From a virus (Duplodnaviria; Heunggongvirae; Uroviricota; Caudoviricetes): a stretch of 64,000 nucleotides of DNA. The position numbers and the translations under genes are program-made. Below the pieces are notes generated by a model. It ran no database searches. It saw only the letters and a program-made list of their open reading frames with translations, and had not been told where the DNA came from. The stretch is from the IMG/VR virus record IMGVR_UViG_3300020057_001228, positions 1 through 64,000 of that record. The stretch is one strand, 5' to 3'. This document shows, piece after piece, positions 38,545-59,526 of the stretch; position 1 is the first letter of the stretch; every line of letters begins with the position of its first letter.

Positions 38545-38832
38545 TTAAGCGGCCCCCATGGCAGGCTGGTGGACAGGCTTCACTCCTTCCTGTGATAGTG
38601 TGGGTTGCTGAACGTCTCGGTGGTAGTATTCAGAGGTGTAAGTAACAGCACGCTCTAAGTTACCATCGGCATCGAACTCCCACGCCTGGAAGTGTGCTAG
38701 GCTGTCACACGTGACAATAGTCTTACCATCAGGCATCAGTTCAATCACCTTTGTACCTTTGGCGCTGCCGAACGGTGGCACGCAATCACAGTTGCTGACT
38801 GTGATTGTTTCCCATGTCCATTTCGTGTTCAT
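38545..38832 (-). CDS. small protein (95 aa, start MNTKWTWE after GGAGGG RBS)
   Basis: Track ORF extended upstream in junk frame; RBS GGAGGGCTAACCATG. Confidence 0.45.
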   Translation of the reverse strand: MNTKWTWETITVSNCDCVPPFGSAKGTKVIELMPDGKTIVTCDSLAHFQAWEFDADGNLERAVTYTSEYYHRDVQQPTLSQEGVKPVHQPAMGAA

Positions 38833-38837
38833 GGTTA

Positions 38838-38996
38838 GCCCTCCACAAAGATCTTGAACTTGCGACCTTCGCAGATGTACTTCCACAGCAGCCCCAGACT
38901 GCAGACAGAGAACTCCAGCCGGTAATACTGTGTAACCCTATCCTCCTCAGGATAGAAGGCCACATTCTGGGCCATGTTACGTTGGTTCATTTTCAT
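38838..38996 (-). CDS. small protein (~53 aa, MKMNQRNMAQNVAF...)
   Basis: Starts right after 40-bp element copy 2 with GAAAGGGAACACAATG; not in track (short). Confidence 0.35.
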
Positions 38997-39011
38997 TGTG
39001 TTCCCTTTCAC

Positions 39012-39051
39012 AAGAGCTCCACGTAGAGCTCGTCTATACGCTAAAGAGCGG
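39012..39051 (-). promoter_or_regulatory. conserved 40-bp upstream element, copy 2
   Basis: Identical to 38488-38527. Confidence 0.5.
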
Positions 39052-39069
39052 GTAAGTTTGAATACCTAC

Positions 39070-39486
39070 TTAGAGGTATTCCCCCTCGATGATCACGTGT
39101 TCACATTCAGTGAGAAAGCAGGAGCAATCACCATAAGCACCACCGCATTCATGTTTGTCAGTAGCCAGGTGCAAACGATCGCGCATGTTAAGGACCTGAA
39201 CGAAGTGTTCAGCACAGTGTTCACCCATGCACTCAGCCACATTGAGATCGCACAACAGGACATCCTTGGTGGTGTAAGGCTCATCACCTTCATAACTACG
39301 GGTCATCACAATGAAGATAGGCTTGGCAATGGATGTGACCGTACCCTTGATCTCACCACGGATCTTCACATCACCGAGACCGTTGTACCACAGCCCACCG
39401 ATCATCCTGCATGAGCACCCACAGATGCCACACCAGCCATCCATCGTGCAGGTTTGGCAGTAGCACTTGCATTCGTTTCCCATTGT
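39070..39486 (-). CDS. cysteine-rich protein (~138 aa; MGNECKCYCQTCTMDGWCGICGCSCR...)
   Basis: About 20 Cys incl. CxCxC, CxxC, CGxCGCxC clusters; RBS GAAGGGAGAA. Confidence 0.5.
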   Translation of the reverse strand, partial: TMGNECKCYCQTCTMDGWCGICGCSCRMIGGLWYNGLGDVKIRGEIKGTVTSIAKPIFIVMTRSYEGDEPYTTKDVLLCDLNVAECMGEHCAEHFVQVLNMRDRLHLATDKHECGGAYGDCSCFLTECEHVIIEGEYL

Positions 39487-39530
39487 TGTTCTCCCTTCAC
39501 AAGCTCGTACCAACGTAGGTATGAGCGTCT

Positions 39531-39558
39531 ATCAAAAGAAAAGGGGCCGAAGCCCCTA
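39531..39558 (-). terminator. intrinsic terminator (GGGGCTTCGGCCCC + T-tract)
   Basis: Hairpin then TTTTCTTTTGAT on minus strand. Confidence 0.6.
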
Positions 39559-39566
39559 TGGAATAC

Positions 39567-39776
39567 CTACACCTGCCAGCACCAGTACAGCTCTTCAGCC
39601 GCCCATTGCCAGTGGTCAGATAGGAATTCATACCTCTCATGCGTCCAGTCGTACAACCTCCCAAAGGGAAGCATACGAAGGGCCACACCCCATACTTTCC
39701 AGTATGGTTTGAGGTAGGATTCTACAGCCATCCAGAACGCCACGATGCAGTGCAACGCAGTGATGATGATGGTCAT
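39567..39776 (-). CDS. small membrane protein (69 aa, Trp-rich)
   Basis: TTTTGAAAGGAGAGGTCTATG RBS/start; TM helix. Confidence 0.45.
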   Translation of the reverse strand: MTIIITALHCIVAFWMAVESYLKPYWKVWGVALRMLPFGRLYDWTHERYEFLSDHWQWAAEELYWCWQV

Positions 39777-39788
39777 AGACCTCTCCTT

Positions 39789-39866
39789 TCAAAAGTAGCT
39801 TAAGCCAGCTACCAAGCAATACTGCGCCGAGGCAGTATCAAAAGAAAAGGGGGCTTACGCCCCCTT
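39789..39866 (-). repeat. 78-bp composite element copy 1 (two hairpins + terminator)
   Basis: Duplicate at 40731-40808 with 1 mismatch. Confidence 0.6.
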
Positions 39867-39871
39867 TGATG

Positions 39872-40120
39872 CTACATACCCATAGCATCGTAGAATGCAG
39901 CGGTCTCCTCACGACGGGCAGCATCATAATGCTCACGCAGAGAGATAGACACATCATGATGATCCAGCGCAGCCTTAGCATCACTGCACACTACAGTCAT
40001 CACCTCAAGGCGGTTCTGCGGCTCACCCTCAAGCGCAGCCTCTTCGCTGGTCATGCTTATGAAAGCACTTCCAACAATGAGGTTGCAGACGGTGAGCGCA
40101 GTCGCGATGATGATACGCAT
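39872..40120 (-). CDS. small secreted/membrane protein (82 aa, MRIIIATALTVCNLIVGSAFI)
   Basis: TTTTGAAAGGACAATACTATG RBS/start; N-terminal hydrophobic segment. Confidence 0.45.
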   Translation of the reverse strand: MRIIIATALTVCNLIVGSAFISMTSEEAALEGEPQNRLEVMTVVCSDAKAALDHHDVSISLREHYDAARREETAAFYDAMGM

Positions 40121-40179
40121 AGTATTGTCCTTTCAAAAGAGGCTTAGCGAGCCCCCGCGCAACACAGAGCTGAGTCTAT

Positions 40180-40206
40180 GTCAAAAAGAAAGGGGCTTTC
40201 GCCCCT
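40180..40206 (-). terminator. intrinsic terminator (GGGGCGAAAGCCCC + T-tract)
   Basis: Hairpin then TTTCTTTTTGAC. Confidence 0.55.
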
Positions 40207-40215
40207 AATCATCCT

Positions 40216-40374
40216 TACGGATGCGAGTCGATCGCATCTTGCAGGTTCGTAAAATCATCCATCATTTCAGCAGCATGATGAGCAGACACGTCAGCCTGAT
40301 GACCTTGAAGATCATAGGTGCCCATCAAACCAACAACAACGATGGCGATGATGATAGCAGTGATCTTACCCATG
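40216..40374 (-). CDS. small membrane protein (~52 aa, MGKITAIIIAIVVVGLMGTYDLQGHQ...)
   Basis: GTGAAAGGATGTACACCATG RBS/start; not in track; antisense plus ORF 40221..40454 rejected. Confidence 0.4.
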
Positions 40375-40412
40375 GTGTACATCCTTTCACAAGCTCAATC
40401 GTGTTGAGCATA

Positions 40413-40440
40413 TATCAAAAAGAAAGGGGCTTACGCCCCT
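40413..40440 (-). terminator. intrinsic terminator (GGGGCGTAAGCCCC + T-tract)
   Basis: Hairpin then TTTCTTTTTGATA. Confidence 0.6.
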
Positions 40441-40447
40441 CAGATGA

Positions 40448-40657
40448 TTATTGACCCACAATCATAGCACACACATACCATGTGCGCATGAATGCGAACA
40501 TCCATACGATCATGGCGAGCACCTGCATACGCAGATAGCTCCTCGCAAAGCGGCTATTCAAAGCCACAATGCTACCTTCAATGTCAAGCATGTACGCCGT
40601 GGATGAATCCACGTACACAGTAAATTCAGACATGGCCTTGTCCTCGTACTTGGTCAT
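40448..40657 (-). CDS. small membrane protein (69 aa, MTKYEDKAMSEF...)
   Basis: Preceded by palindrome element and GAAAGGAATGCATCATG. Confidence 0.45.
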   Translation of the reverse strand: MTKYEDKAMSEFTVYVDSSTAYMLDIEGSIVALNSRFARSYLRMQVLAMIVWMFAFMRTWYVCAMIVGQ

Positions 40658-40678
40658 GATGCATTCCTTTCATAAGCA

Positions 40679-40694
40679 CATGCACATGTGCATG
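40679..40694. promoter_or_regulatory. perfect 16-bp palindrome CATGCACATGTGCATG, about 25 bp upstream of start codon
   Basis: Same palindrome at 42122-42137; degenerate copy at 41874-41898. Confidence 0.5.
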
Positions 40695-40700
40695 AGCGAT

Positions 40701-40730
40701 AGTCAAAAAGAAAGGGGCTTACGCCCCCTT
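40701..40730 (-). terminator. intrinsic terminator (GGGGGCGTAAGCCCC + T-tract)
   Basis: Hairpin then TTTCTTTTTGACT. Confidence 0.6.
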
Positions 40731-40808
40731 CAAAAGTAGCTTAAGCCAGCTACCAAGCAATACTGCGCCGAGGCAGTATCAAAAGAAAAGGGGGCTTAGG
40801 CCCCCTTT
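40731..40808 (-). repeat. 78-bp composite element copy 2
   Basis: Near-identical to 39789-39866. Confidence 0.6.
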
Positions 40809-40818
40809 TCTTTTTATG
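40777..40818. terminator. bidirectional intrinsic terminator (GGGGGCTTAGGCCCCC flanked by T-tracts on both strands)
   Basis: AAAAGAAAAG upstream and TTTTCTTTTTAT downstream on plus strand. Confidence 0.55.
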
Positions 40819-41857
40819 CGTAAGCTTCCTCCCACTCGGAGGCGTATGCGCCTCCAACCCATGGGTCTACTACCTCATCGACTACCCGGTCGTAGCGGGT
40901 AAGCGGCAATCCCATTGCCTCTGCCAGATCTCTGGCGAACTGGGGTGGATCTTCTCCTAGATACACCACAGATTGGTATACAGGGCTCTCTATAAAAGCC
41001 TCGATATACCAGTCCTCTGTCATGGAGTCGGACATCCGGTCGATGTCCCCCCAATAGCAGACTTTGACCAGACCCAGCATCCTGCTGGATATCCGCCCCT
41101 TGTCTGCTGTGCACGCGTCCCCCGCGTACGCCTTTAGGAGGACTGTCTTCGTGGTATCTACCACGAGCCCTACCTTGGCCACCTCCCCGGCCAGTCCCAG
41201 GGACTGGCCGAAGCGAAACGCCTCGGCACTTACCGGTCGTCCCGGCGCTGCTTCGAAAGCAGCGATGTCCGCCACGGTCGCCCCGCGCCCGTAGGCGCCC
41301 ATCCACCTTACGGTGGTGGGATGGGAGGACCTGCTCTCTTTCCCCACCTTTTCCCAATACGGAGCTGCGGCTGCCAACGCAGCCTCAGCTAGGTGTGCCT
41401 CCCAGAGGAGGATTTCCTCTGGCCACATTACTATGTCCAGTAATGCGGCCGTTTCCGCCGCCTGGGCGGCGGCCCAGACGTCTGCGCCCAGTATCACCTG
41501 GGTGTATACCCCGACCGCGGTCGCGACCGGGTAGTCGCCGGCGAGGATGCCGGCGATGTCGAGCCCCGCTTGCAGGGTCTCTGCTACCTCCCGGTAACGG
41601 AGCCCCTGCTTGACAAGCCCGTAGGCTTGTCCCGACAGCTCGGGGCAGAGCTCTACTATGTGCCCAGCCGCCTCTAGGGTGGCGAAGTCTGTGGTATTAA
41701 CCCACAGGATGGCGGCCTCTGCCGTCGTCAGACGACGGTTGAGGCCAGACGCCTTGAGGGCGTCCTTGAGGACACCCGCCTCACGCTGGATCCAGAGTGC
41801 GCCGCACTCGGCGCCCCGGGCGGCGATGAGGGCGGCAATAGTGTTCTTCTTGGTCAT
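40814..41857 (-). CDS. Ala-rich hypothetical protein (347 aa), highest-GC gene in window
   Basis: Clean ORF; starts MTKK after same GAAAGGAATGCATCATG leader as 40448..40657. Confidence 0.55.
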   Translation of the reverse strand: MTKKNTIAALIAARGAECGALWIQREAGVLKDALKASGLNRRLTTAEAAILWVNTTDFATLEAAGHIVELCPELSGQAYGLVKQGLRYREVAETLQAGLDIAGILAGDYPVATAVGVYTQVILGADVWAAAQAAETAALLDIVMWPEEILLWEAHLAEAALAAAAPYWEKVGKESRSSHPTTVRWMGAYGRGATVADIAAFEAAPGRPVSAEAFRFGQSLGLAGEVAKVGLVVDTTKTVLLKAYAGDACTADKGRISSRMLGLVKVCYWGDIDRMSDSMTEDWYIEAFIESPVYQSVVYLGEDPPQFARDLAEAMGLPLTRYDRVVDEVVDPWVGGAYASEWEEAYA

Positions 41858-41902
41858 GATGCATTCCTTTCATAAGCACATACACACACGTGCATGAGCG
41901 AT

Positions 41903-41932
41903 AGTCAAAAAGAAAGGGGCCGAAGCCCCCTT
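41903..41932 (-). terminator. intrinsic terminator (GGGGGCTTCGGCCCC + T-tract)
   Basis: Hairpin then TTTCTTTTTGACT. Confidence 0.6.
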
Positions 41933-41986
41933 TGATGCTAATACCCGCGTTGAGTGTGTATATCACTCAACGCAACATCATTGTTG

Positions 41987-42099
41987 ACTAGGCGTGCGGT
42001 TACGCACGCCACACACTGCGCACACGCAGCACCACCGCACGTCTTTCGAAGTAGACGTGCATACTTAACCCCCCGAACGAACAGTTCAACGATGACCAT
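41987..42099 (-). CDS. micro-ORF (~37 aa, MVIVELFVRGVKYARLLRKTCGGAACAQCVACVTARL)
   Basis: Driven by third palindrome/GAAAGGA leader copy; coordinates +/-1. Confidence 0.3.
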
Positions 42100-42121
42100 G
42101 TGATACATCCTTTCATAAGCA

Positions 42122-42137
42122 CATGCACATGTGCATG
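42122..42137. promoter_or_regulatory. 16-bp palindrome CATGCACATGTGCATG, copy 2
   Basis: Identical to 40679-40694. Confidence 0.5.
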
Positions 42138-42517
42138 AGCAGTAATCAAAAAGAAAGGAGGCATAGCCCCCATAGATGTTTAGAACATCACATCATCATC
42201 TCCATCCCTTCGCTGATGATGCGCATTTTGTTTTCCTGTCACAGCACCTGAATTGTTTTTTCAGGTAGCGCTAACAGTATGGGTAGGGGGGTAGGTCCCA
42301 TCCCATATAAAGGACTCGTCTCAACTAGAAGCTTTTAACCCACAGGTTACTAGCCTCACTCCGTGCTCCCGCACTCCGTTCGTACAATGTTCACATCGTA
42401 CAGTGTTCATACCTAACGCACTAGGTTCCCTCCACCCAGGTAAAAATATGTACAGGAGTATTACACCAGCGGTCACTAGTGGGTCCCATGCCTAGCACAG
42501 GGCCCACCAGCAGCCTC

Positions 42518-44436: not shown

Positions 44437-47400
44437 TTACTGGTTTACTGTGCTGTTATCCACTGTGTCCCTTAGATTCGTATACGACAGGTCTCCATCT
44501 TCGCCGTCTGCAAAGGTGATGTTAGCCAAGTTGCCAGGCGAACCATCGATGTAGACTTCACTCCCATTTTGATCAACCAGTGAATTGACTTGAGTAAGAT
44601 CATCAGCCAGTCCTTCCATATATCCTGTAAGCATGTCGATTTGGCTCATAGCCCCCGCAGTGATATCTCCGAGTAGATCTTTAGCTTTCTTGGTAGCACC
44701 ACTACCCATCAACCTCTCAAGAGGCTTCTGTGCCAGTACGGCAGCGAAGGTGGAGGCAACTCCACCGACGACGGTCCTACTCCACACGTTCCTACTAGGT
44801 ATCCTTAGAGCAGCAGCAGCTACTCCTTCAGCCATGATACCAATACCCATAGAGGCAGCCATGATTCCAGCTGCGTGTAGCTGTTTGTCATGAGAGTTGT
44901 TTAGGAGCATACGAGTCATAGCCTGTGGTGAGTTCATAGCTATACCATAAGCAGCACCTTCCGCTATGTCTTCGTAACGTACCTTCTGGTGGTTGATAGC
45001 AGCTCCTAGAGCAGATCCTAAACCACCACCAAGTCCACCGATCATTACGTTCAGTGTGGTAGCACCTGATTGATTTCTAGGGTTATGAGGATCAGAACCG
45101 ATAGCCTTGTTCAACCTACCCTCTACCTTGTTCCAGAAGAAGTTAGTAGGATCGCCACTCCTGATCTCGAAGCGTCTCCGTAGGCCCTCTTCGATACCAG
45201 CAAAGTTCTGTAGTAGCTTCTCTAGCCCTGGCGCATCGTGGTCACCTGTTAAGGCGGTACCAGACTGTACACCAAAGACCATAGACTGCCGTGAGAGCTT
45301 ACGCCTCTGGTTATCACTTAGAGAGTTGTTAGCAGCATTCATCAGAGACTTCTCTGACATATCAGAGCTAGCACGCTGCTCAGCATACTTACTTAGCATG
45401 GTGCCTAGACCAGAGTTAGGATCCATAGCATTCATAGCAGCTTCTAGAGCAGGCATGGTGTGCTTGTCTGCCACCGCACGCTCTAGCAGGCTCTCTAGGA
45501 CTACTACGAGCTCCTTAGGGTGTTGTGCTAGATGAGGACGACCTGCTAGCTCCATGAGAGCTGTAGACTGTACAGATAAATCGAAGTGACTATTGTTCTC
45601 TATTGAGAACCTACCACCAGGACCTACCGTACCAGCGTGCTCACGAACACTCTCAAGGTACTGCTTCTTCTTACCCTGCACCTCAATGAATCTGTCTAGA
45701 ACAGCGAAGTCACCATCATCTACAGAGAACAGCTCGGTTAGTCTGTTCTGGAAAGCCTTCTGCATCTTGTACTCAAGAGAGCTGATCCTACCGCCACCCT
45801 GCTTTTTAGCTGTAAGGTCAGGAACACCAGTCTCTTCATGTACGAACATAGCAGTGGCGTGCTGGTGTACGAACTCAGTGAACCCCAGGTACATGCTGCT
45901 ATTCTTACCCATGGTCTTCTTGAGCTCAGCAAAGGTAGTGAACCTATCTGCTGTACCAAGCTTGGACTCATCAAGGGTCTTACGGAAGTCCATGGCGATA
46001 TCGTCAGCAATGATCGTGTTCTCTAGAGTATGGAGATCGATCTTCTGACCCTTACCAAACTTCTTGTTCAGCATGGCATCCATGTTGTATTCGCTGAACT
46101 CTTTAGCAGCTACTAAGGTGAAGCGCTTCTGAGCTTCCTTCATACCGTTGTGGCTTAGCTGACGACGTTTCTCAGCGTCTGGGTAGCTCTCGTGCTTATC
46201 TCCGTGCAAAGTATCATCTAACACATCTCCGATAAGATTACGTAGCACACCATCGACTGGCATGTTGTCACTGATCATCGCGTGTAGGTAGGAAGCAGTC
46301 TTGGCACCAGTGATGTTAGCCATAGCTGCCTTAGCACCACTACCACCGTGATCTTTAGAGAGTGCACCTAGCTGAGCTACAGTGCTGATACCCTTAGGTT
46401 TCATAGCGTCACGAGGCATCTGCGCTAGGGTCTTGATGAACCAGGAGAACTTCTCCTTCTTAGTTAATCCACCTTCGTTACGTACCTTCTTTGACCCATC
46501 AAAGTAGGTCATACGGTACTTATCATCATCTAGCCCACTCAGCACGTTAGTCATCGTCATCATGTCGTATGACACGTTGAATGCTTTACCGATGATCTCA
46601 GTACCAGCTACACCTACGTACTCCTGCATGAACCGGAAGTGCTCTTTGTTAAGAGCTACAGGGTTGGATACGTTCTGAGTAAGCCCACTTAGGGCCCTGT
46701 CAGTAACAGTTCTGGAGATATCCATGTGCATCTTACGACGTGCTTCTGGAGAGACGTCCTTAATCTTGTTTGTGCTAGTCTTATCCTCGTGAGCCTTAAC
46801 CTCAGCTAGATAGTCCATGAAGTAGCCAGCACTACCGTCGTAGAGCTCACGTACCTGTTGGATTACATGTTGAGATCTGTATAGGATGTCAGCCTGCTCT
46901 GTAGTGTTCTTATCAGCAATAGCTTTATCGAACGCCATGCTCAAACCAGGTACTGAGGCGTACTTCTCAGCGGAACGGACTAGCAGACGACCATTGTTAG
47001 CATCAGCTACAAACTGGTGCATAGTGTGGTACTGCTTATCAATTCCGTCAGCACTGTAGTTCTTGAGGAAGTTGATATCCTGTTGAGTTAGGCCAACAGG
47101 TACGTTCTTACCAGTGGCCCTAAGAGCAGCATTCTTCTTCACACGCTCTCTCAGAGCCTCACGTGTGCGCTTCTTACCCTTTAGAGCTGTGTACTTACCA
47201 ACATCTAGGAAGGACGCTTGGTCTCCATCCCAGTCTCCAAGAGACATAGCCATAGCTGTCATGCTGGTCAGGATGATCGACTGGTTATCTTTGCCAGATA
47301 AGGTTATGTCACTCAGCTTGTTGAGATCCTTCAACATCCCGTACTCTTTCATGTTGAGTACTAGAGATGGAGCATACTCAGAACCTAGAGGAGCACCAGC

Positions 47401-50400
47401 ACGACCACCGTAGCTAAGCATGCCACCAGGACCAGTTATAGCCAGGTCAGCCATAACACTCTTAGCAGTCTGGTAGATATGTAGGTCGCTTACACCTTTA
47501 GTCTTACGCCTACCCTTAGGATCGTCTTTGAGCTTACGGCTCAACTTCTCCATCAAGGTGTCCATCGCCTCGTTGAGGCGGCCTTCCTTAATAGTAGAGA
47601 AATCTAGATCCTTCTGGGTTAACTTACCGTTCTCATCAGTTACCCATACGTTCTTAGCACCCTCATCATAGCGGTCTGTAACCTGCTTGAAGATACTACG
47701 TACGTGCTTATCTAGAGCTCCACGGAGAGATGTCTCATCCATGTAGACTAAGTCAGACCTGAGGACAGGCTTGTTCTTTACAGTGTCCCGCTGCCCTGTA
47801 CGTCTTAGCTTCTTGTACTCAGCTTTAGATATCGGCTTAAAGTCACCGTTATCCATGTAGACACCCTGTTGGTGATCGGCAACGCTCATGTAGAGCTTGC
47901 TGATGTCATCACTGATACCAACAGTCTCATAGAACAGATTGTCTACACCCTTGGCAAAATCCTTGCTACCAGGTAGAGCTTTATCTACACGCTTGGTGTA
48001 CTCCTGACGTACGTGATCGTAGAGGAACCGTTTGGTATCACGGACCTTCTTGTTGAAGACTGAGTCCCCGTATACAGCCATACCCATAGGAACGGCCATG
48101 TCTGTGACGGCCGTGACGGTGCTACCGGTAGACTTAAAGACACCATATAGAGCAGACACATAGTCGTTGCTTAGGTTGCTACTGTACCAGTCGTAGATCT
48201 TTTGAGTAGCATCAAGTAGGTAAGACAACTGCTTACCAGCTCTATCGGTGATACTAAGCTTCTTACCTTGCTCAGCAGCAGTAGATATATCCTGGAAGAG
48301 GCCAACTTCATCTGCCTGAATACTTAATACCCTCTGGAAGCTCTGTACGATATCAGCACCAGCACCACTACCACTCATTGCCTTCATAACATCGAAGTCA
48401 GGCATAGGGATCTTCACACCACCCACAAGTTCGACACTCATGCCGGAACCCTGAGGAGTGATGTTCAGCTCAGGCAGGAAGATGGTCTGTGCGCCTATAC
48501 CAGCCTTCTCAAGGGCTGTTAGGAACGCTGGAGTATCAAGTGTACGGAGATCACCTGTACCCACCGTTACGGTCTTACCAGAGGCTCTCTTATCCCTGAG
48601 AGTCTGGGCGATGTTACTACTATCCTTGATGAGAGCTAAGCTCTTTACCTCAGTAGCTTTAGTAAGGCTATCAACACCTGTCTTAAATCCCTTTTCGAGT
48701 CTTGCTCTACGATCCACATCTGTTACTAACTTAATCTTGTCCCATTTACCCTGCAGGGATAGGATACGATCTGCCGTACCTTCGTGAAGCTCGTGCAGCT
48801 GTTTCGCCAGGGAGCCCACTTCAGACTCCAGCCCTAGTTCTGCTATAGATGCAATCATCGCAGCACTGATGGTACCAAAGGCGCTGATACCCTGTTTACG
48901 TCCACCAACCTCACCAAAGCCCGTGGTGAACAGAGATGCAAGGTGAAGCTGACTCTGCTGAGACTTGTTCATACCATCGAACATGATACCGAACTGGTGC
49001 TGGTTCTCGGAGAAGTTCATGTAGGTCAGGAACTTAACCTCAGGCCTACGTGAGAGCACGGTGGTATTCGTATTCATAGCGTTAGGTGCAAACGTAGGGA
49101 TCATGAACTTCTCTTTCGAGATTAGGTCCATCATCTTCTTAGTCTGCGCATCGTCCAAGTCACCAGCCTGGATCTGCTTCTTATGCTCATGCATAAAGAC
49201 GGAGATCTCGTTAGACTGCGTGTCTACGGGTCCCTTTACGTGCGCATCCCAATTAGCCATACGGTGCTCAAGCTGAGAACTCATATGGAACTGTTCCCAC
49301 AGATACCAAGCCATCAAGGAAGCTGCTTGGTGTTTTACGTTACCAACGTTAAGAGCCTTACGACCCTTCATGTTGCTAAGGTCAGTCTCTACGCTCTCGA
49401 ACAACTTCTTGATCTTAGCGTGTGCGTTCTCTCCACTGCTAGCAATGTTGTGGATTAGATCCCTAGCCATCTCCTTACTACCGTAGTTACCCTTGTGAGC
49501 ATCTTCACCCAGCTCTGTGTAACCACCTTCCTTCTTCTCTTGAAAGTCCTTCATCACACGCTCTAGGAATAGATCTGATCCACCCATCCTCTCAATACCT
49601 GTCCACATCTTCTGTAGGAAGCTTGTAGAAGGATTAGCGGTCATCAATAGGCCAGCACCTGTCTGCATAAGCAGATCACCGTGCTTGATGTTCGACTTGT
49701 TAACGATAGTGTGGAAAGACTCAGCACTAACACTACCCATACCCATGTAGCTCTTCATGGCTTCTGTGGAATCAGTGTTCATCAGGTAAGACTTATTAAC
49801 GGCAGCTGCGAAGCTAGCACCAGTCTCAATGAGGTGCACACCTTTTGTGGTCATGCTCCTCATACCACCCTCGGTGGGAGATGCTACCTTAAGGGCTACG
49901 TTTACGATGTACTTACGTGGATCAGCAGCACTACGTATAAGCTCAGGTGCTCTAGAGATCTGAGAGAACCCACCGGATGCAGTAAAGGACCAGGCAGGGT
50001 TATCAATGACCAGATTAACCTTGCGCTTACCGAACCTGCTGTGGATCTCTGCTTCACCTAGATCGATCTTCTCAGAAAGGATCTTGGTCCCTTCCTCATG
50101 CAGCTTCTGTAGAGCTTCGATAGACCTAAGGTCATGGTTCTTAGCATCTAGCTGGAAGGATACTACCTGCTCACGTACCTGGAAGACGCCATCGTATGCC
50201 GCTGCGTTAGCCCTGATAATATCGTGGTTAACACCTGAGCCAATCTCCAATAGAGACATCGTCTTGTACATCTTGATAGCTGGGTCCTCAAGTAGGTTAC
50301 CCATCTTATCGAATGCATCCTGTGTCTGCATTGGAGCATAGTACAGCTCAGAGTCTACAAGACTACCAGTGCCCTTCTTAGCACCCTCAATCCAGGTAGC

Positions 50401-53238
50401 CTGATCCCAGATGCTAGAACCGAAGACGTTCTTCAAACGCTGAGAGGTCTGCCACAACTTACCAAACGGTGTGAAGAACGTGAAGTCTTCTCTACCATCC
50501 TCACTCACAGTGGTCATGGTTGTGTTTCTGAAGGCTTGAGACCTGTACTGTTGACCTACCTGACGTCCCTTCTGATAGCCCTTACCAGTATCCTGGAAGC
50601 TGTAGTCGTCTACCTCGTAGTTGTTGTTCCTGAAGGCGATCTTAGCCTGTCTCTCAGGACGTAGGATATCGAATGGATCCTTGGTCTTCTCGTATACCTG
50701 GTACTGGTGATCCTTACCTGCGTAGGCGTGCCTACCAAGATCGGACCCCTCAAAGGTACCCATAATGTCACGTAGGAATTCCATACCTCTACGCTTCATA
50801 AGATACTTCGTGGAAGTACGGGACATCATCTCTTCGATACGAGTCTCAATCTGAGATTCGGTAGGAGGCTTGCTGAGAGCCATGTTGAGCTCTACGATAG
50901 CTTTGGAACGGAGTTCTTCTCCGATTACCTTCTCGGCTATAAACTCATGTGTGAGCTTCATAGCGCTACCGATTACTTGTTCGTAGCCAATGTGCTCACT
51001 ACTCCTATAGGCACCGTCTTGACGAGTTAAAGCTGTGACTCCACGAATAGTCTTCTGGAACGCAGGTAGGTAGACACTGGTCTCACCTGGCTGGTGGAAC
51101 ATCTCGAATGTTACGAGGTTCTCAACAGCAGTACCCTTGAACCTAGCTCCAATGGAAGCTACGCTTGAGTAACCACCTGTACCCTTGCTGATCTTAGCGT
51201 GTAGCCCAGCAGCGTTTAGCCTATCAGATACACCAGACAATGCCTTCAGTGTTGAGTCTAGTAGACCCCACCTGGCTAGTACTGGAGTGCTGTACAGAGA
51301 GATGTTCTTATCCATCATGTTCTCTGTTGTAGCAGCAGCCATTACACTGTGCTGGCCTAAACCATACTGACGTTCAATCAGCTTGTAGGAATCATGCAGA
51401 TCAGGGATATCATCCGAGGTAGCCATGAAGGCACCCTCTCGGTTCCTACGTGCATCATCCATTGCAGCAGAACGATCAGACGCATTGGCAGAACCAATGA
51501 TTTGTGTCATACGTCCACCAGAGTCCTGATGGAAGAAGCCCTTGGCGTGCTGGAACCGACCGAAGGTATCAGCTAGTCTGATGTTTTTACCTAGGCCGAG
51601 GATCTCTGTCATGGCTGCTAAGTCGCGACCAGTTCCCTTCAGGTCACGCATCACACCACCTTCGTTCTTATCGAAGTAGGCTTTGAAGTCTGCGTTGTTG
51701 GACCAGTTCTTAGTCTCCATACCCTCCATGAGTAGTGTGATCTCACCACCCTGGTTAGCAAAGCCCTTCATCTGGCTTAGAAGCCTATCGAAGGTGCTTG
51801 TACCACCATTGCTGGTTGATACGTTGATTAACGCAGTCATACGATGGCCTGTGAGGTCACCTGTCTGCTGGAGGATCTTACCGACCTCCTTGTACATATC
51901 CATACCATCCATGAAGAAGCCAGCTCCCTGGCTCCTAGTCAGTCTGGAGGTACCTGTAGGATCGTGCATGTAGCTACTGAAAGCCCTAGCACCATCTACC
52001 ATGCGCTTGAAGATGGCTTCTCTCTGTTGGAGCTGACTACCACCTGCAGCCCGTCTCCACTTAGAGTCAGGGTCTAATCCACGGGTAACGATAGTATCGT
52101 AGTCTGCATACTGGGTAAGCTCGATGTTACCCAAGCTGCTAGCGTACACACCATCACGCATAACAGGACCAAGAGCACCCATGGTGACGTTGGCTGTAGA
52201 CATGAGGAAGGCAGCATTACGCCAGTTGCTAGAGCTCGATAGGTTAGCACCAATGAACTTGTAGTGAGCAATCTGCGAGAAGGTATCTTCGCTGTTACCG
52301 AAGTTGTGTGAGTCCCCAGGTGTAAACCAATCTAGGTTAACGTTGTTCAGGCTGCCATTGGTAGAACGTATAGGACTAAATGCACCCTTAGCCTCAGGTA
52401 GGTTAGCAGCGCCAGTCCTTAGGTTGTTAGCTACGTTCCTACCAAACTCACGTAGGGTAGCCATAGTTAACGCATTACGTGTAGCAATGGACGTAGGTGC
52501 GCTCAGGGTCATATTGACATGACCACCAGCTTCCATAACCCTACGTTGGGCTAGCATAGTCTCAGCTAAGATACTGGTGTTCTCAAATTGGAACATACCG
52601 ATATCTAGACTGCTAGTTGCCTTCTGTAAGACCTTAACAAACAGTGAAGCATGATCATGGGATGCCAGAGACGTTACCATCTCAGGTACTCGTAGACCCT
52701 TACCACCTGTAAGAATCTCGTATTCCCTGAACGACGTCATAGTTGTGTGCATCAAGCTGTTGGTAACGAACTCGTGGTTCCAGCCTTCAAGACGGTTCAG
52801 ATCCTTCCAGTTGGCGTCTGGCGTGCCCACCAAGGTGTGTCTGATAGCATTTAGGACAGTATCCACCTGCCTACCCATTTCAGTGGGTCTTAAGGAGGTG
52901 CCAAGGTCAAACTGTTTTGGTTCTAGACCGGACTTAATCCTGCGTAGGCTATCTGCACGTGTACCAGTAGTATTGATGAGAGCATCCATGATCCCATCAG
53001 TCTTAGTCATCTGACCAAGGGTGTGGAATGGATCAATAGAGTGCTGCTGCTGTAGATCGTTAAAGATACTCAGGGTGCGAGAATCACGCTCAGCAGTGTT
53101 ATCAGCTGCCTGGTGTGTCTCTGCTAAACTATCATCAGCGTTACGTGGTTGTAGTAAACCAAAGAACGGTTTGAGCCTAGCGGACTCCAAAGCATTCTTG
53201 GTGTTCGCCGTCAATCTTTGTAGATCAAAACTATCCAC
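44437..53238 (-). CDS. giant 2933-aa protein, putative virion-associated two-barrel (DPBB) RNA polymerase-like protein
   Basis: YAPSLVLN...[30 protein letters not shown] (DWDGD at 47221-47235, aa about 2002) parallels beta-prime RAPTLH...GKAIQLHP...[20 protein letters not shown] (about aa 559, nt 51536-51565) resembles beta GRHGNKGV; gene abuts virion module. Confidence 0.4.
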   Translation of the reverse strand: [2933 protein letters not shown]

Positions 53239-53913: not shown

Positions 53914-55599
53914 ATGGCAAAGAACACAGCTAGATTAGCCCAACAGGCTAAAGCTCAGGCGCAAACAGATAAGGTTGTCCAGGCTTTACCTAGGGGTTCA
54001 GCCAAGCAGGCTGGTAGTTCTATCCTGCTTGGCACTATCGCTAATATCAACGGCTTCCTCGCTAACCCTGATGCGATTAGACTTCAGGAGTACGAGAGAG
54101 CCCTCACGACGGATGAGACGGTAGCTGGAGCCATTGACTTCATACAGCTATCTCTCATTGCGTCTATGGGTGAGTATCAACATCCTAGGGAAGATATTCG
54201 TAGGTTTGTTCAAGAGAACCTAGACAATATGGAAGGTAACTTCAGACAGGCACTTGGAGAGATGGTTCTCTCTGCGCTATGGTCTGGCTTTGCCTGCTCT
54301 GAGATGGTCTGGCGTGTTGATGGTGGTTCTTTGTGGCTAGAGAGAATGGCCAACTACCATCCTGGTTCTATTCATATGGCTGTAGACCGCAACGGTTATC
54401 TAACCGAGGGTGGTGAGCCTATGATGCCTGGTTCCAAGACACCTGGTGTCTATCAGATGTCACCTGTCAAAGGTTGGGGAACATATCTCCCACTACCGAT
54501 GAACAAGCTGTGCATCCTAACCCATCGTAAGCGCCACAATAACTACTACGGTGAATCTATCATCCGTAGAATCTACAAGCTCTGGAAGTACAAAGACCCA
54601 GGCCTAGAGATGTGGGCTATCGCTCTAGACCGCTATGGTACACCTGTTGTGTACGCAGTCGTTCCAAACCTACCTACAGGTAGAGAGATTGGTGACAGCT
54701 ACTCTGAGGGTGGTAAGCGTGCTGAGACGATGGCTGATTCAGCCTCTGTAGCACTCGCGGGTATCCATACTGGTACTGGTCTAGTACTAGAGAACCCAGA
54801 CCCACAGAATGAAATCCAGCTTGGAACTTTGAGCACTGGTAACAACTATGGCACTAGCTTTGAGAACTTCATCGGCCACCTAGACCGTGGTATGTACAGG
54901 GGTATGCTTATCCCACAACTAGTGTTCAGTGATGGCAAAGGTGGTATGAACTCTACCGCTCAGACTCACTTCGCTGTATACCAAGCTATGATCAAAGCGT
55001 TGTACTCTCAGTTCGTAGAGCAGTTCACGGAGCAAGTCATTGGTCGTCTGATCCGCTACAACTTTAATGAGACTAATCCTGGTAAGTTTCCATGGATCCC
55101 GTTTGACCCAACTATCTCTAGCACCATTACTAATGCTTTAGACAAGATGGTAGACAAAGGTGTTGTGGATACTTCTGATATTACAGACCTCAACATTGTT
55201 CGTCAGATCATTGGTCTACCAAGCAAGGAACAGGCTATGGTCAAGGACATCCACCAACTTGTAGAAGACAAGAGTGAGGCCACCAGATCTAAGGTCAACA
55301 TCGCACAGATCAGGGCAGATGCTCAGGTCAAAGTGGCTGGTATGCGTACAGAGACTAAGGAAGTTCCTAAAGAGAACGCTGCCCCAGAGGACATTCATGG
55401 CCAGCACGCTCTGGATCTGGATACTATCGATGTAGAACATCAGAACGATATGGAGAAGATGCTCAAGCAGCATGAGCTCGATATTGAGAAGCTGAAGATC
55501 ACACAGCAGCACCAGAAGGAAACAGCGAAGATCAATGCTAAGGCAAAGGCTTCGATGCCTAAACCTGCGGTACCTAAGAAGCCTGCTGGAGGCAAGTAA
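53914..55599 (+). CDS. putative portal protein (561 aa)
   Basis: Size and position at head of capsid module upstream of scaffold-like and capsid genes; charged C-terminal tail. Confidence 0.4.
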   Translation: MAKNTARLAQQAKAQAQTDKVVQALPRGSAKQAGSSILLGTIANINGFLANPDAIRLQEYERALTTDETVAGAIDFIQLSLIASMGEYQHPREDIRRFVQENLDNMEGNFRQALGEMVLSALWSGFACSEMVWRVDGGSLWLERMANYHPGSIHMAVDRNGYLTEGGEPMMPGSKTPGVYQMSPVKGWGTYLPLPMNKLCILTHRKRHNNYYGESIIRRIYKLWKYKDPGLEMWAIALDRYGTPVVYAVVPNLPTGREIGDSYSEGGKRAETMADSASVALAGIHTGTGLVLENPDPQNEIQLGTLSTGNNYGTSFENFIGHLDRGMYRGMLIPQLVFSDGKGGMNSTAQTHFAVYQAMIKALYSQFVEQFTEQVIGRLIRYNFNETNPGKFPWIPFDPTISSTITNALDKMVDKGVVDTSDITDLNIVRQIIGLPSKEQAMVKDIHQLVEDKSEATRSKVNIAQIRADAQVKVAGMRTETKEVPKENAAPEDIHGQHALDLDTIDVEHQNDMEKMLKQHELDIEKLKITQQHQKETAKINAKAKASMPKPAVPKKPAGGK

Positions 55600-55934
55600 T
55601 GCCTGCTAACTATGCACCGGTAGTTTACCAAGGCGATAACTTTCTTATGCCTATGACTTTGGTAAACGCTGACCCAGGCGAGACACCTATAGATATCACA
55701 GGGTGGACTTTCCAAGGTGATATCAAGCCATTCCTGGGCTCTCCTACTACCTTGGCATCGTTTACAATAAACATCGTCAGTGCAGTGGATGGGGAACTAG
55801 CTGCATCGCTTAGTCCAGCCCAGACTGTATTACTGCCTCAGAATTGCGTATATGATATAGAGGCAACAAAGGCAGACTTAACTATAGAGACGCTACTCTT
55901 TGGTAGGATCACGGTTCTGCAGCAGGTGACATAA
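55599..55934 (+). CDS. virion module protein (111 aa)
   Basis: TAATG coupling with portal. Confidence 0.45.
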   Translation: MPANYAPVVYQGDNFLMPMTLVNADPGETPIDITGWTFQGDIKPFLGSPTTLASFTINIVSAVDGELAASLSPAQTVLLPQNCVYDIEATKADLTIETLLFGRITVLQQVT

Positions 55935-56404
55935 TGAGTGACCCGTTAGTTAAGATCGTTGAACGGGATCCTATCAAGCTACAGGTTAGTCCTCAGACTA
56001 CAGTAGTAATCAAAGTAGGAGCTCTACGAGGACCAGCAGGCCCTACAGGACCCTCTAGCCCAAATACGACAGCTTCGGCTGTTGCAGGTCAGACTATGGG
56101 TGGCCAGAAGGTTGTCTACTCTAACGTAGACGGTAAGGCCTACCTGGTGAACAACACCACAGTATCACAGGCTGGAAAGATTCTAGGGTTCACTGATACT
56201 GCTGTGGTAGCTGATGCAACCTTCGATGTTGTTAACGGGGGTACTGTTCTACTCTCTGGACTTGTACCAGGAGATAGATACTACGCAGGGCTTACAGGAG
56301 GCGTAACTAATACACGTCCAACTGTGGGATTTGTACAACAGGTGGGTATCGCTATGACTACTACGGTTCTAGCAATACAGATATGTATGCCGATAGTTTT
56401 ATAG
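55934..56404 (+). CDS. beta-rich structural protein, paralog A (156 aa)
   Basis: Similar to 56417..56929 (Ala/Gly/Thr/Val-rich). Confidence 0.45.
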   Translation: MSDPLVKIVERDPIKLQVSPQTTVVIKVGALRGPAGPTGPSSPNTTASAVAGQTMGGQKVVYSNVDGKAYLVNNTTVSQAGKILGFTDTAVVADATFDVVNGGTVLLSGLVPGDRYYAGLTGGVTNTRPTVGFVQQVGIAMTTTVLAIQICMPIVL

Positions 56405-56416
56405 GAGATCTAAGTC

Positions 56417-56929
56417 ATGGCAGGTAAGAAGTACATTAAGCTCAACACCGTGGGCAACCTAGAGCAGGAAGCGTCTGTCGACGTATCCGCAGGTGCGGGT
56501 GATGCTACTAAGATCGTTGCGCTAGACGCCAATGGTCTGATCAGTAGAACTATGATCCCTACAACCCCAGCTCGTACCTTTACAGCTTCCGAAGCTATCG
56601 CAGCCGGTGCGTTTGTAAACATCTGGGATTCTACGGGAACCAAGGTCCGTAATGCCGATGCTTCTGGTGGTGTGGCTAAAGGTGCTGACGGCGTAGCTGT
56701 TTCTGCTATCAGTAATGCTGCTAGTGGGATTATCGACTTGGACGACCTAATAATCGGTGGTCTGGTAGGCCTCACAGTAGGCGCTTACTACTTCCTTGAC
56801 GCCGTTACACCTGGTGCTATCACAGCAACACCTCCTACAACTGCTGGACATATTGTACAGAAGGTTGGTAAGGCTATCTCTACTACCGAGCTAGCGGTGG
56901 AGATTGACGATCCTATTATCCTAGCTTAA
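56417..56929 (+). CDS. beta-rich structural protein, paralog B (170 aa)
   Basis: Paralog of 55934..56404. Confidence 0.45.
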   Translation: MAGKKYIKLNTVGNLEQEASVDVSAGAGDATKIVALDANGLISRTMIPTTPARTFTASEAIAAGAFVNIWDSTGTKVRNADASGGVAKGADGVAVSAISNAASGIIDLDDLIIGGLVGLTVGAYYFLDAVTPGAITATPPTTAGHIVQKVGKAISTTELAVEIDDPIILA

Positions 56930-56949
56930 GTTTTTAGCTAGGTGGTACC

Positions 56950-57309
56950 ATGGCTACTAAAGTACTGAAGATCAACGCTGGCGGGCATCTTGAAGAGGTG
57001 CCCGTACTTGATGCTACAGACATGGCTAACCACTACCACGCACGTGCACAGTACTGCGAGCCTAAAGCTGTTACAGCTGATGGACTAGATACAGGACAGA
57101 CGTGTTGGAATAGTGCTGCTAAGACTACTGTCTACTACGAAGAGACAATCGCTTGGTCTGTTGATAGGTTAACGGCGACTCAAACTGAAGACTACTATGA
57201 CAACGCTGGCACGGCTAAAGGCCAAGTCGTTACTGTGCATATCTATGATGTCGATGGTAACTGGCTCAATGGTACTCAGACTGTCCCACTAGGGTCAGGA
57301 GGACTGTAA
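56950..57309 (+). CDS. virion module protein (119 aa)
   Basis: Clean ORF. Confidence 0.45.
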   Translation: MATKVLKINAGGHLEEVPVLDATDMANHYHARAQYCEPKAVTADGLDTGQTCWNSAAKTTVYYEETIAWSVDRLTATQTEDYYDNAGTAKGQVVTVHIYDVDGNWLNGTQTVPLGSGGL

Positions 57310-58130
57310 TGGGTATCCACCAGCTTATGAAGAACGTAGGACTTAGGTTCGGCGCTGACAATGCTGTTGGTGAGAACTCAGGTACTCCTACGTCTACAAC
57401 GATCCTTGGTAGACTTAAAGCTATTGCTGACGCTATTACAGCTCGCTTCAGTGTTCTTGGTCAACAGACTATGGCTAACAGTACTTCGATTGTTGTAGCC
57501 TCAAACCAATCAGCTATCCCCGTCAGCCAAAACGGTACATGGACTGTAGGGCGTACATGGAGTCTGTCTTCGGGCACTGACTCGATTACTGCTGTGCAGT
57601 CTGGTACTTGGGCTGTTAATCAGACACAGATAAGTGGTACTGCTATTACACTTGGGCAGAAAGCTATGGCTGCCTCTTACCCGGTGGTTATCGCCTCAGA
57701 CCAACCACCACTAGACACCTACCCAGACTGGACTGTAAACAGGACAATCATCCATAGGCGTGGGGCTATCACCCAAGCCAGCTTAACAGAAGCTGTTCTG
57801 TCTAACGCTACAGCCGTACCTGGTGGCGAAAGTGCCCAAGCAATAAACTACACAACACCAGCATCCGGCCCTATCTTCTATCTAACCCGTATTACTGTAG
57901 CTACCTTAGCTCAATCTTTGAACAACGTATGTTCTGTAACGATCAGAGATGGTGCAGGTGGTACACGTACACAGGCAGTAAGTATACATACTGAGTACGA
58001 AGCTATGGCCCATGCAGAGTTCAATCCCCCAATCCCTATGCCGGCTAACACTGCTATACAAGTTCTAGTTGACCAGAGTACTACAACCTCTACAACCTAC
58101 CGTATCTCTTTTGGAGGTTACGAGCAGTAA
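57309..58130 (+). CDS. structural protein (273 aa), Ser/Thr/Gly-rich, fiber or decoration-like
   Basis: ATGA coupling; composition. Confidence 0.45.
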   Translation: MGIHQLMKNVGLRFGADNAVGENSGTPTSTTILGRLKAIADAITARFSVLGQQTMANSTSIVVASNQSAIPVSQNGTWTVGRTWSLSSGTDSITAVQSGTWAVNQTQISGTAITLGQKAMAASYPVVIASDQPPLDTYPDWTVNRTIIHRRGAITQASLTEAVLSNATAVPGGESAQAINYTTPASGPIFYLTRITVATLAQSLNNVCSVTIRDGAGGTRTQAVSIHTEYEAMAHAEFNPPIPMPANTAIQVLVDQSTTTSTTYRISFGGYEQ

Positions 58131-59032
58131 TGGACTACTCTTCACTGCTAGCGAATGTTAGACACCACAACTCTCAGATCCTCGTAGAGGACGCTGGGGC
58201 CTATTACAAAGTGTCTACATACCCACCTAAAATGGGACTCATAACCTGTGTTGTGAACAAGGGTACAGAGGATGCTACGGCTTTAGAATCTATCCAGCCG
58301 TACTGGAATATACCTACAGCTACTGAAGAGTTTAGGTTCATCACGCATAAGTTCAACAACCCTGCATCGTGGGATGGTAGAACTAATGGAGACCCTGCTG
58401 CTTCTTGGGCAGCTGACAATGGTGGCGTTTTTTATGATGACGTCCACTATAAATGGCTAGATGTTAATGGTGACCCTGTCTGTCATCTAGATACCATGGA
58501 TGGGGGTGTAGGCTCTATATGGCGGGATGAAGAGGATGAGATCATTGTCCAATACAACGCTGTTACCAGTCATTGGGAGCGCGTAGACAACAGTGCTAAC
58601 GTAACTTCTAGCCGCTGGTCCATTGTCCCTTATCCTAATACGAAGATGGCGTTAATCCAGGCTAAGAGCTTATTCCACTACCAGGCTACAATCCAACCTG
58701 TAGCCGAAGGTGTTCCTGGTGCACTACGGTACATTGTCTATATGTACCTACCGGAAGGTTACGCAGGCCCTGGAGCCCCAGCAGGAATATACCCGGTTAA
58801 GCAGTTTGTCTATCAACAGACCGAGCTTCTAGCTTTAGCTGCTAACCAAGATGACAAAGATGAATCAACTGGTATGGTTAGTTCTCTTTACGACTACAGG
58901 ATTACCAGCATTGTGCACATCGACAGTAGGATGGCTATGAGGTTAGATATACAACTAGATGGCCACCTACCAGTCTTATCAAACTACCCAGCCCTAGCCT
59001 CATTCATTGGAAACAAGATCGCGAGCTTCTAA
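58130..59032 (+). CDS. structural protein (300 aa)
   Basis: ATGA coupling. Confidence 0.45.
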   Translation: MDYSSLLANVRHHNSQILVEDAGAYYKVSTYPPKMGLITCVVNKGTEDATALESIQPYWNIPTATEEFRFITHKFNNPASWDGRTNGDPAASWAADNGGVFYDDVHYKWLDVNGDPVCHLDTMDGGVGSIWRDEEDEIIVQYNAVTSHWERVDNSANVTSSRWSIVPYPNTKMALIQAKSLFHYQATIQPVAEGVPGALRYIVYMYLPEGYAGPGAPAGIYPVKQFVYQQTELLALAANQDDKDESTGMVSSLYDYRITSIVHIDSRMAMRLDIQLDGHLPVLSNYPALASFIGNKIASF

Positions 59033-59526
59033 TGGGTAAAGCTTTTTATCTGGACAGCACTAACATCCTTAAACCTGGTGATATCTTAATCTCTCGTATG
59101 GACTGGTGGCACCCTGTACATCTACTTGTAGCAGCGACTACTAGGTCTCAATTCGTGCATGCATCTTTGTATATAGGTGACGGGTGGGAGTGGTCTGTAG
59201 AGGCCTTTGGTTCCCGTCTACGTAGGTCTCCAACTGACAACGTGTGGATTTACAGACCTTTGCAAGCAGAGGCTGCAATCAAGGCTGTGGAGTTAGCACT
59301 GGCGAACCCTGTGACGGGTTACAACTGGTCTGGTGCGGTATGGACTGGTGTGCGGGCGGCCGAGACCAACAGGTCCGCCCTGCACCGTCCATCTACCGCC
59401 AAGTACTGCTTTGAAGCTGTCACAGATGTATATGCTAAGTGTGAATATGATCTTGTTCCACGTCTAGACGATGGTGCAGTTCTAGGTAAGGATATCGTAA
59501 GTAGCGATCTTCTTGTTAGGTTATGA
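59032..59526 (+). CDS. permuted NlpC/P60 (YiiX-like) papain-fold peptidase, likely virion-associated cell-wall hydrolase
   Basis: GDILISR...TRSQFVHASLYIGDG (His) preceding KYCFEAV (Cys): His-before-Cys order of permuted NlpC/P60. Confidence 0.4.
   Translation: MGKAFYLDSTNILKPGDILISRMDWWHPVHLLVAATTRSQFVHASLYIGDGWEWSVEAFGSRLRRSPTDNVWIYRPLQAEAAIKAVELALANPVTGYNWSGAVWTGVRAAETNRSALHRPSTAKYCFEAVTDVYAKCEYDLVPRLDDGAVLGKDIVSSDLLVRL

Follow-up and report, generated by a model that had tools for sequence, protein, structure and literature searches.

We report that a 64,000-nucleotide stretch of an uncultured tailed phage (Caudoviricetes; IMG/VR record IMGVR_UViG_3300020057_001228, positions 1 to 64,000; hereafter the window, whose numbering is used throughout) encodes a giant protein of 2,933 amino acids (aa) on the minus strand at 44437..53238, which carries a family-invariant aspartate triad resembling the active site of two-barrel RNA polymerases (RNAPs). 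Taken together, our data suggest, with moderate confidence, that this protein is packaged and ejected with the DNA, that a diverged two-barrel core with Mg2+ held at D2002, D2004 and D2006 transcribes the first phage genes before a second enzyme of 1,236 aa follows, and that a phospholipase D (PLD)-like module and a hydrophobic tail serve entry or host attack.

The open reading frame (ORF) begins with GTG, preceded by GGAG at a distance of 8 nt, and is a real gene: relatives of 2,852-3,046 aa align with its product over the full length at 26-39% identity. A word-index search of 5.8 billion clusters returned only the protein itself and one relative (3,007 aa, 36% identical), HMMER, run exhaustively over 1.84 billion cluster representatives, gave seven proteins in total, each with E < 1e-50 and most of 2,852-3,046 aa, and scans of IMG/VR and JGI metagenomes added one further, truncated relative (L006). 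The family consequently has eight known members among ~15 billion proteins, with relatives 24-39% identical, and the family alignment used here comprises seven sequences (26-39% identity to the window protein), the truncated relative standing outside it. A preliminary description of this DNA, made from the letters alone, had pointed to the ORF and to two polymerase-like motifs in its product; the ORF and both motifs exist, and the positions given for them are right to within a few bases.

The motif at the centre of our argument, DWDGDQ, occupies aa 2002-2007 (nt 47235-47218, minus strand) in a stretch, YAPSLVLNMKEYG..., that begins at aa 1955. GDWDGD (aa 2001-2006, 47221..47238, minus strand) provides the putative Mg2+-binding triad D2002/D2004/D2006: G2001, D2002, D2004, G2005 and D2006 are invariant in all seven aligned members (family consensus LGDFDGD), the truncated eighth reads GNRGGSP...IGDFDGD, and the form GD[FYW]DGD is present in every one of the eight. 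The preliminary description had proposed D-x-D-G-D-Q as the conserved unit, of which the triad and the Gly hold across the family and the remainder does not, as both W2003 and Q2007 vary. Calculated by hand from the composition of the giant protein, the chance expectation is 0.08 per 2,933 aa for D-x-D-G-D and about 5e-4 for G-D-[FYW]-D-G-D. Judged by its conservation, GDWDGD is a selected site and not an accident, because it is invariant across the family at 24-39% identity with neighbouring residues varying. Moreover, 56 aa upstream of the triad the protein has GGRAGAP (aa 1944-1950, 47389..47409, minus strand), in which G1944, R1946 and P1950 are invariant in seven of seven aligned members and which we read as a variant form of the [RK]xP found in two-barrel RNAPs; such enzymes have been filtered by requiring [RK]-x-P within 20-100 aa before the triad (PMC10770324). 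The predicted order of structural elements and the top profile match (see below) make aa ~1860-2015 (47194..47661, minus strand) the candidate catalytic double-psi beta-barrel, DPBB-A.

For profile comparison, the giant-family profile of aa 1400-2500 was aligned by hhalign with a core profile of crAss-like virion RNAPs (vRNAPs) built from seven sequences, i.e. aa 880-1650 of gp66 of Cellulophaga phage phi14:2 and six crassviruses. The top match paired ITLSGKDNQSIILTSMTAMAMSLGDWDGDQASFL (aa 1978-2011) with VGILPEAMGDTIVAYTEIPTKTGSDFDIDKMYVM of gp66 (1337-1370) with an E-value of 0.1, the Asp triad being in register on the DFDID of gp66. When suboptimal alignments were allowed, a second match (E 0.3) paired aa 1679-1713 (QKIYDWYSSNLSNDYVSALYGVFKSTGSTVTAVTD) with gp66 1044-1076, a segment that falls within the DPBB-B of gp66, which spans residues 1024-1100 in a structure-based alignment (PMC10770324, Suppl. 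Fig. 8). The two matches are collinear, and in the giant protein the first Asp lies 300 aa from the paired Lys, compared with 296 aa in gp66. Among the column-shuffled controls, 0 of 59 reached the top score and 0 of 59 had a second match as high, under a null that is lenient. We regard the matches to both gp66 barrels as modest, not decisive, support for a two-barrel core, because of this lenient null and because the hhalign probabilities are < 1%. In keeping with the preliminary description, the motif type is that of two-barrel and not T7-like enzymes. DxDGD is invariant in the family, its best profile match, a weak one, is to the crAss-like vRNAPs at their catalytic barrel, and a right-hand polymerase domain of the T7/N4 type (Pfam RNA_pol) was not found in the giant protein at E-values up to 1. 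The crAssphage cr4_1 polymerase was left out of the vRNAP alignment; its gene (L009, NC_055893.1 37538-39790) has three in-frame stops under translation table 11, and these fit the stop-codon recoding that occurs in some crAss-like phages.

The second-best match defines a candidate DPBB-B, including a preceding helix, at aa ~1570-1730 (48049..48531, minus strand), ~300 residues upstream of the Asp triad. Ten of its residues are invariant (A1579, G1582, P1589, M1612, G1699, G1705, T1709, P1717, G1719 and G1724). RSMTTKGV at aa 1127-1134 was also considered as part of a second barrel and was rejected; it lies 870 aa from the triad and is without a supporting match.

Structure prediction with AlphaFold2 and the seven-sequence alignment gave a mean predicted local distance difference test score (pLDDT) of 56.9 and a predicted TM-score (pTM) of 0.34 for aa 1400-2500, and 71.1 and 0.55, respectively, for a tighter crop (aa 1565-2035); in both models the segments around GGRxGxP, DxDGD and aa 1690-1715 had pLDDT < 50. 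In the DPBB-B candidate the preceding helix is followed by a confident long beta-hairpin (aa 1584-1612), then helices and two short strands, and in the DPBB-A candidate the order is beta-beta-helix...beta-beta-helix-beta-helix-loop(DxDGD). The predicted order around both regions is compatible with two half-modelled DPBBs. AlphaFold combined with a fold search, which had been suggested as a way to look for two DPBBs and was run twice, settles neither their presence nor their absence because the alignment is only seven sequences deep and the catalytic segments are of low confidence. Downstream of the triad, the family alignment shows two strongly conserved blocks, FRFMQEYVGVAGTEIIGKAFN (aa 2201-2221) and QMPRDAMKPKG (aa 2273-2283), at 46390..46638 on the minus strand. 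Their invariant residues include F2203, Y2207, G2209, A2211, I2216, G2217, F2220 and N2221 in the first, and Q2273, R2276, D2277, K2280 and P2281 in the second, and the blocks are possible equivalents of the bridge helix (h-h-G-x-x-x-N) and the trigger loop (D-x-x-K).

A second candidate two-barrel RNAP was found in a six-frame D-x-D-x-D scan of the window. This 1,236-aa ORF (33517..37227, minus strand), ~7 kb downstream of the giant gene, reads VYVLRHPVIVG...NQGDFDGDTGCIFPI, and has the strict form of the filter, with R-x-P (R880-H-P882) followed by 36 aa and then GDFDGD (G915-DFDGD-920). Downstream of its giant gene, whose product is 29% identical to that of the window, contig L003 encodes a 1,242-aa homologue (18633-22361; E 7e-14) in which R.P and GDFDGD recur; both DbDGD proteins (b, bulky residue) are co-conserved there. 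The 1,236-aa protein is without a match in Pfam, PHROG or PDB, and an IMG/VR search returned no further relatives. Translation probably begins at the ATG that forms codon 8, giving 1,229 aa, because the database copy has this length. Upstream of the gene there is a 9-bp hairpin, AAGAGGAGA..TCTCCTCTT, followed by GTGCTGAAAGGA-N9-ATG, an arrangement related to the repeat units described below. On the strength of its motifs we consider the protein a candidate non-virion RNA polymerase. The window also has a 203-aa ORF (27316-27927, minus strand) with DIDGD (nt ~27690) and no Pfam match, probably a chance occurrence.

The giant protein's N-terminal portion is of a different kind. The preliminary description had read FGRFQHAKGFF (aa 559-569, nt 51564-51532, minus strand), ~1400 residues upstream of the triad, as a barrel motif like GRHGNKG of the beta subunit. 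We reject this assignment; the segment is the HKD motif of a PLD-like domain, and the candidate ~300 residues upstream of the triad is the better second barrel. G560, R561, H564, K566, S583 and N585 are invariant in six members and constitute the H-x-K...G-S-x-N signature. Relative to a Pfam PLDc_2 gathering cut-off of 27 bits, the match of the window protein, which covers this segment, is below threshold (aa 484-610, 19.1 bits). When six members were scanned singly, PLDc_2 matched four of them and two exceeded the cut-off at different positions: P0004 with 27.6 bits at aa 450-567, corresponding to window aa 484-610 (the downstream copy), and P0007 with 36.3 bits at aa 193-321 (the upstream copy), where the window protein has AHYKFIGANL. 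From these matches at two distinct positions in different members it follows that, by family comparison, the N-terminal ~600 residues contain a PLD-like module with two HKD motifs (aa ~190-610, 51409..52671, minus strand). The first is compact and HKD-like (AHYKFIGANL, aa 325-332, 52243..52266, minus strand; family consensus IAHxKFxGANL), and the second is H564-A-K566...G582-S583-A-N585 (51484..51549, minus strand), covered by both PLDc_2 and PLDc matches. Two tandem H-x-K...G-S-x-N copies are common to the giant family and the PLD superfamily (Nuc, BfiI/NgoFVII nucleases, cardiolipin synthases and phospholipase D), but in the former the first copy is compact (HxKFxGAN) and the second exceeds the canonical spacing by 4-5 residues. 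We know of no other fusion of a PLD-like module to a polymerase-like giant protein.

Several results weigh against a polymerase identity, in addition to the low hhalign probabilities. None of the sequence methods reached significance for it: Pfam on the whole protein gave only the weak PLDc_2 match and no polymerase, Pfam on each family member over aa 1400-2500 gave nothing polymerase-like, PHROGs gave no polymerase match to the whole protein, tblastn against 50,697 phage records gave nothing (including no gp66 orthologue), and phmmer and hmmsearch against PDB with the protein and with 2-, 6- and 7-sequence profiles gave noise only. Fold searches with the giant-protein models did not find a polymerase. 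Within the 20-100 aa before the triad there is no strict [RK]xP, the giant protein having R-x3-P. K1702 in the candidate DPBB-B is replaced in three of the seven members: P0004 has Arg, followed two residues later by a Lys, and P0006 and P0007 have Met and Val, respectively. The likeness of the downstream blocks to QDE-1 and gp66 (FLGMCTN, GVGITAN; VDQSKQ, VDNAKQ) was seen by eye only, and hhalign did not pair them with the bridge helix and trigger loop of gp66. Finally, hhalign did not match the giant-family profile to the family of the 1,236-aa protein. The silence of the libraries is expected, because two-barrel RNAP families share little beyond DxDxD: they have no significant similarity outside this region (PMC10770324), and ~1,600 of the 2,180 residues of gp66 are without detectable homologues (bioRxiv 10.1101/2020.03.07.982082).

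Another explanation is that the giant protein is an ejected or internal head 'polyvalent' protein, in which DxDGD binds metal for another reaction or for structure (possibilities are a nucleotidyl transferase, a primase-like enzyme, a PolD-like DNA polymerase or a Ca2+ site) and the PLD-like phosphodiesterase is the real enzyme. The PLD-like domain is the sole one above a curated threshold in the family, fold searches retrieve no polymerase and the gp66 profile matches are weak. Nevertheless, we hold this explanation to be unlikely, although it is the strongest of the alternatives: GD[FYW]DGD with a preceding hydrophobic strand and R...P 56 aa upstream is a two-barrel hallmark, a second, independent profile match falls in the partner barrel at the right distance, and the same phage encodes a canonical-looking partner polymerase.

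Between the giant and the 1,236-aa genes, motif counts revealed an array of 10 short transcription-unit-like repeats (38440..42185, minus strand), with one further copy near 32143. Each unit has, in order, a GC hairpin and T-run, a TTTTGAYWNNNNCTCR box, a perfect hairpin, CTTNTGAAAGGA and the ATG of a short ORF. The numbers of CTTNTGAAAGGA (12 occurrences versus 0.21 expected) and of the TTTTGAYWNNNNCTCR box (8 versus 0.05) are far from expectation, with nearly all copies on the minus strand in the 38.4-42.2 kb region. The hairpins vary in sequence and length, with loops such as TACGTG, TACGTT and CACGA.... Each short gene in the array seems to be served by a terminator and an upstream signal of its own. 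Eight analogous units are present directly downstream of the giant gene in L005 (16020-18850, plus strand), composed, in order, of CCCC-TTTTTCTTTG, a hairpin, GGAGG and ATG. The hairpin stem (6-7 bp) is variable, whereas its loop, A(C/T)GAA, is conserved; compensatory double changes occur at seven of the seven stem pairs, and those stems that need G-T/G-U pairs would favour structure at the RNA level. On this evidence the hairpin units make good candidates for promoters of a phage polymerase or for leader structures. As a separate observation, L003 (17650-26135, plus strand) has seven copies of TGAGAGGAGTATC-N3-5-ATG before genes, including the 1,242-aa polymerase-like gene and the next gene, and identical terminators, AAAGGGGCCTTCGGGCCCCTTTTTATTTG, are repeated there; the TGAGAGGAGTATC leader differs from that of the window.

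Within a long minus-strand block the giant gene is the 5'-most, and it is divergent from a plus-strand head module (53914..62066, PHROG matches), which includes the portal (53914-55599; phrog_113, E 6e-42) and major capsid protein (60966-62066; phrog_30785, E 7e-46) genes. The preliminary description was correct on the strand and the divergent orientation; it also had the giant gene abutting the portal/capsid module, and here a 114-aa ORF (53334-53678) intervenes before the portal gene. The placement beside this module is retained in distant relatives, as the giant genes of contigs L001 and L003 are likewise divergent from Portal_Mu/Phage_cap_E genes. Toward its C-terminus the giant protein has three Gly/Ala-rich hydrophobic segments in a Kyte-Doolittle scan (aa 2729-2749, 2787-2813 and 2818-2836; 44731..45054, minus strand), which are also kept in the truncated relative and are candidates for membrane insertion. 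The size, the hydrophobic segments and the lack of a match to a tail or tape-measure family fit an ejected protein.

We therefore propose, as a model to be read conditionally throughout, that the giant protein would be a multidomain one, carried inside the phage head and ejected along with the DNA. Residues ~1570-2330 would form a very diverged single-chain two-barrel RNAP of the QDE-1/crAss gp66 kind, in which D2002, D2004 and D2006 would hold the catalytic Mg2+ and the second barrel would lie ~300 residues upstream. Upon entry the polymerase would read the first phage genes from phage-specific signals, for which the hairpin units at 38.4-42.2 kb are the best candidates, and early expression would thereby not rely on the host polymerase. 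Transcription would afterwards pass to the 1,236-aa second polymerase, as it passes from gp96 to gp64 in phage P23-45. The two-HKD module might add a phosphodiesterase activity, nuclease or phospholipase, and the C-terminal Gly-rich hydrophobic segments might serve membrane passage.

Packaging is the step in this model with indirect evidence throughout (position, size and hydrophobic segments), which counts against it and leaves room for a two-barrel RNAP that is made in the cell, e.g. as a late or middle polymerase, with the host RNAP or the 1,236-aa enzyme starting the infection. The TTGAYA box of the repeat units resembles a sigma-70 -35 element and the terminators are ordinary intrinsic ones, which would suit such a scheme. 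Yet a sigma-70 promoter was rejected for the box: no -10 element was found at a fixed distance, and a two-element promoter does not fit because the distance from TTGAYA to the start varies with hairpin length. In addition, a size of ~2,900 aa, module fusions and a fixed place by the portal are typical of ejected RNAPs (N4, crAss gp66 and P23-45 gp96), and we judge a polymerase that is not packaged to be quite improbable.

A tail tape-measure protein, or another purely structural tail or ejection protein, is very improbable. The giant protein is very long, is largely helical in both models and has C-terminal hydrophobic segments as in many tape-measure proteins, and ejectosome chains were among the non-significant Foldseek matches; against this, it has no Pfam or PHROG tape-measure match, its gene is not part of the structural operon but is on the opposite strand, upstream of the portal and not among tail genes, and the invariant enzyme-like motifs would be left unexplained. 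That DxDGD is a chance occurrence in an unrelated protein, as its three occurrences in the six-frame window translation (about chance level over 128,000 codons) might suggest, is effectively refuted by its invariance in eight of eight members with varying neighbours.

We also put forward, tentatively and as a possible rather than probable extension of the favoured reading, that these proteins are a third independent lineage of virion-delivered two-barrel RNAPs, after gp66 and gp96, present in a handful of uncultured phages of ~185-200 kb. In this lineage a minimal QDE-1-like DbDGD core would be joined in one chain with a two-HKD PLD-type phosphodiesterase and with segments that insert into membranes, would read hairpin promoters with a conserved ACG-containing loop and would hand over to a second, unrelated two-barrel polymerase. 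If so, one ejected protein would breach or modify the host through its PLD part, cross the membrane and start transcription. Virion-packaged two-barrel RNAPs have been experimentally shown in only a few phage groups, and they bear on how phages escape host transcription and on the origin of the eukaryotic RNA interference polymerases. The case presented here would add a lineage undetected by any profile library, with a canonical Gly-containing active site, a partner polymerase, an unprecedented fusion to a PLD-type enzyme and, in the covarying hairpins, ready candidate promoters; motif-plus-conservation searches can then find polymerases that profile and fold searches miss.

With respect to the phage itself, the capsid protein is nearest to those of Ma-LMM01-like cyanophages of Microcystis/Microcoleus, at ~30% identity. 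Giant-protein phages are near jumbo size, since contigs with family members reach 185-199 kb (184,856 bp, and 198,800 bp for one with an identical 1,229-aa protein). In the head module, a protease-like gene (59581-60951, plus strand; phrog_976/32941) precedes the capsid gene; this ORF and the one at 59032-59526 (plus strand; phrog_1128, enoyl-CoA hydratase-like) are ClpP/crotonase-like or head-protease-like. The rest of the window has many small minus-strand ORFs, together with minus-strand genes for tRNAs Phe-GAA (702-777), Met-CAT (26681-26755) and Arg-TCT (26902-26978), NADAR (3606-4076), a phrog_200 'lipoprotein'/protease-like product (4089-5024), a DnaJ-domain protein (5210-5821), two NT5C-type 5'-deoxynucleotidases (6751-7284 and 19853-20482), a protein of the uracil-DNA glycosylase (UDG) superfamily (8360-9016) and a BCS1-like AAA ATPase (11342-12580). 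The nucleotidases and the UDG-like protein might hint at modified DNA.

Among known systems, the giant protein resembles gp66 (PDB 6VR4; 2,180 aa) in being a giant single chain encoded beside structural genes, with two barrels (candidates here) ~300 aa apart and most of the protein without detectable homologues, and at both barrels it is gp66 that matches it best, if weakly, in the profile comparison. It differs from gp66 in the absence of significant sequence similarity, in having DbDGD with Gly where gp66 has DFDID, and in the added N-terminal PLD-like module and C-terminal hydrophobic segments, and its phage is not a crassvirus. A parallel in organization is Thermus phage P23-45, in which pre-early genes, among them that of the non-virion gp64, are read by the virion gp96 (PMC10770324). 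Both phages have two unrelated-looking two-barrel polymerases (candidates here), a giant virion one and a free one of ordinary size. On the other hand, gp96 is fused to a tape-measure protein and has its polymerase part at the N-terminus, whereas here, judged by context, the carrier is no tape-measure protein and the candidate polymerase part is central; moreover, gp96 and gp64 cluster together, while hhalign does not relate the two candidate families of the window phage.

The N4 virion RNAP (gp50, ~3,500 aa) is a giant that is ejected and reads hairpin-containing early promoters, and a second phage polymerase follows it. The proposed giant polymerase would share the ejection, the hairpin signals and the succession, but the N4 enzyme has a T7-like right-hand fold and the giant protein has no match to a T7-type family; the parallel between our hairpin units and the N4 hairpin promoters is only an analogy. 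DbDGD is the signature name for QDE-1 and the eukaryotic RNA-dependent RNAPs, with which the giant protein shares this signature with its bulky second residue and the single-chain two-barrel layout, as predicted; it differs from QDE-1 in having no Pfam RdRP match and in its biological context. Overall, the giant protein would work most like gp66 and gp96, yet it stands outside both families by every sequence test: its triad retains the canonical Gly, RxP is replaced by R-x3-P, a PLD-like module and hydrophobic segments are present in addition, and the phage that encodes it, of ~200 kb, is unrelated to crassviruses and Thermus phages.

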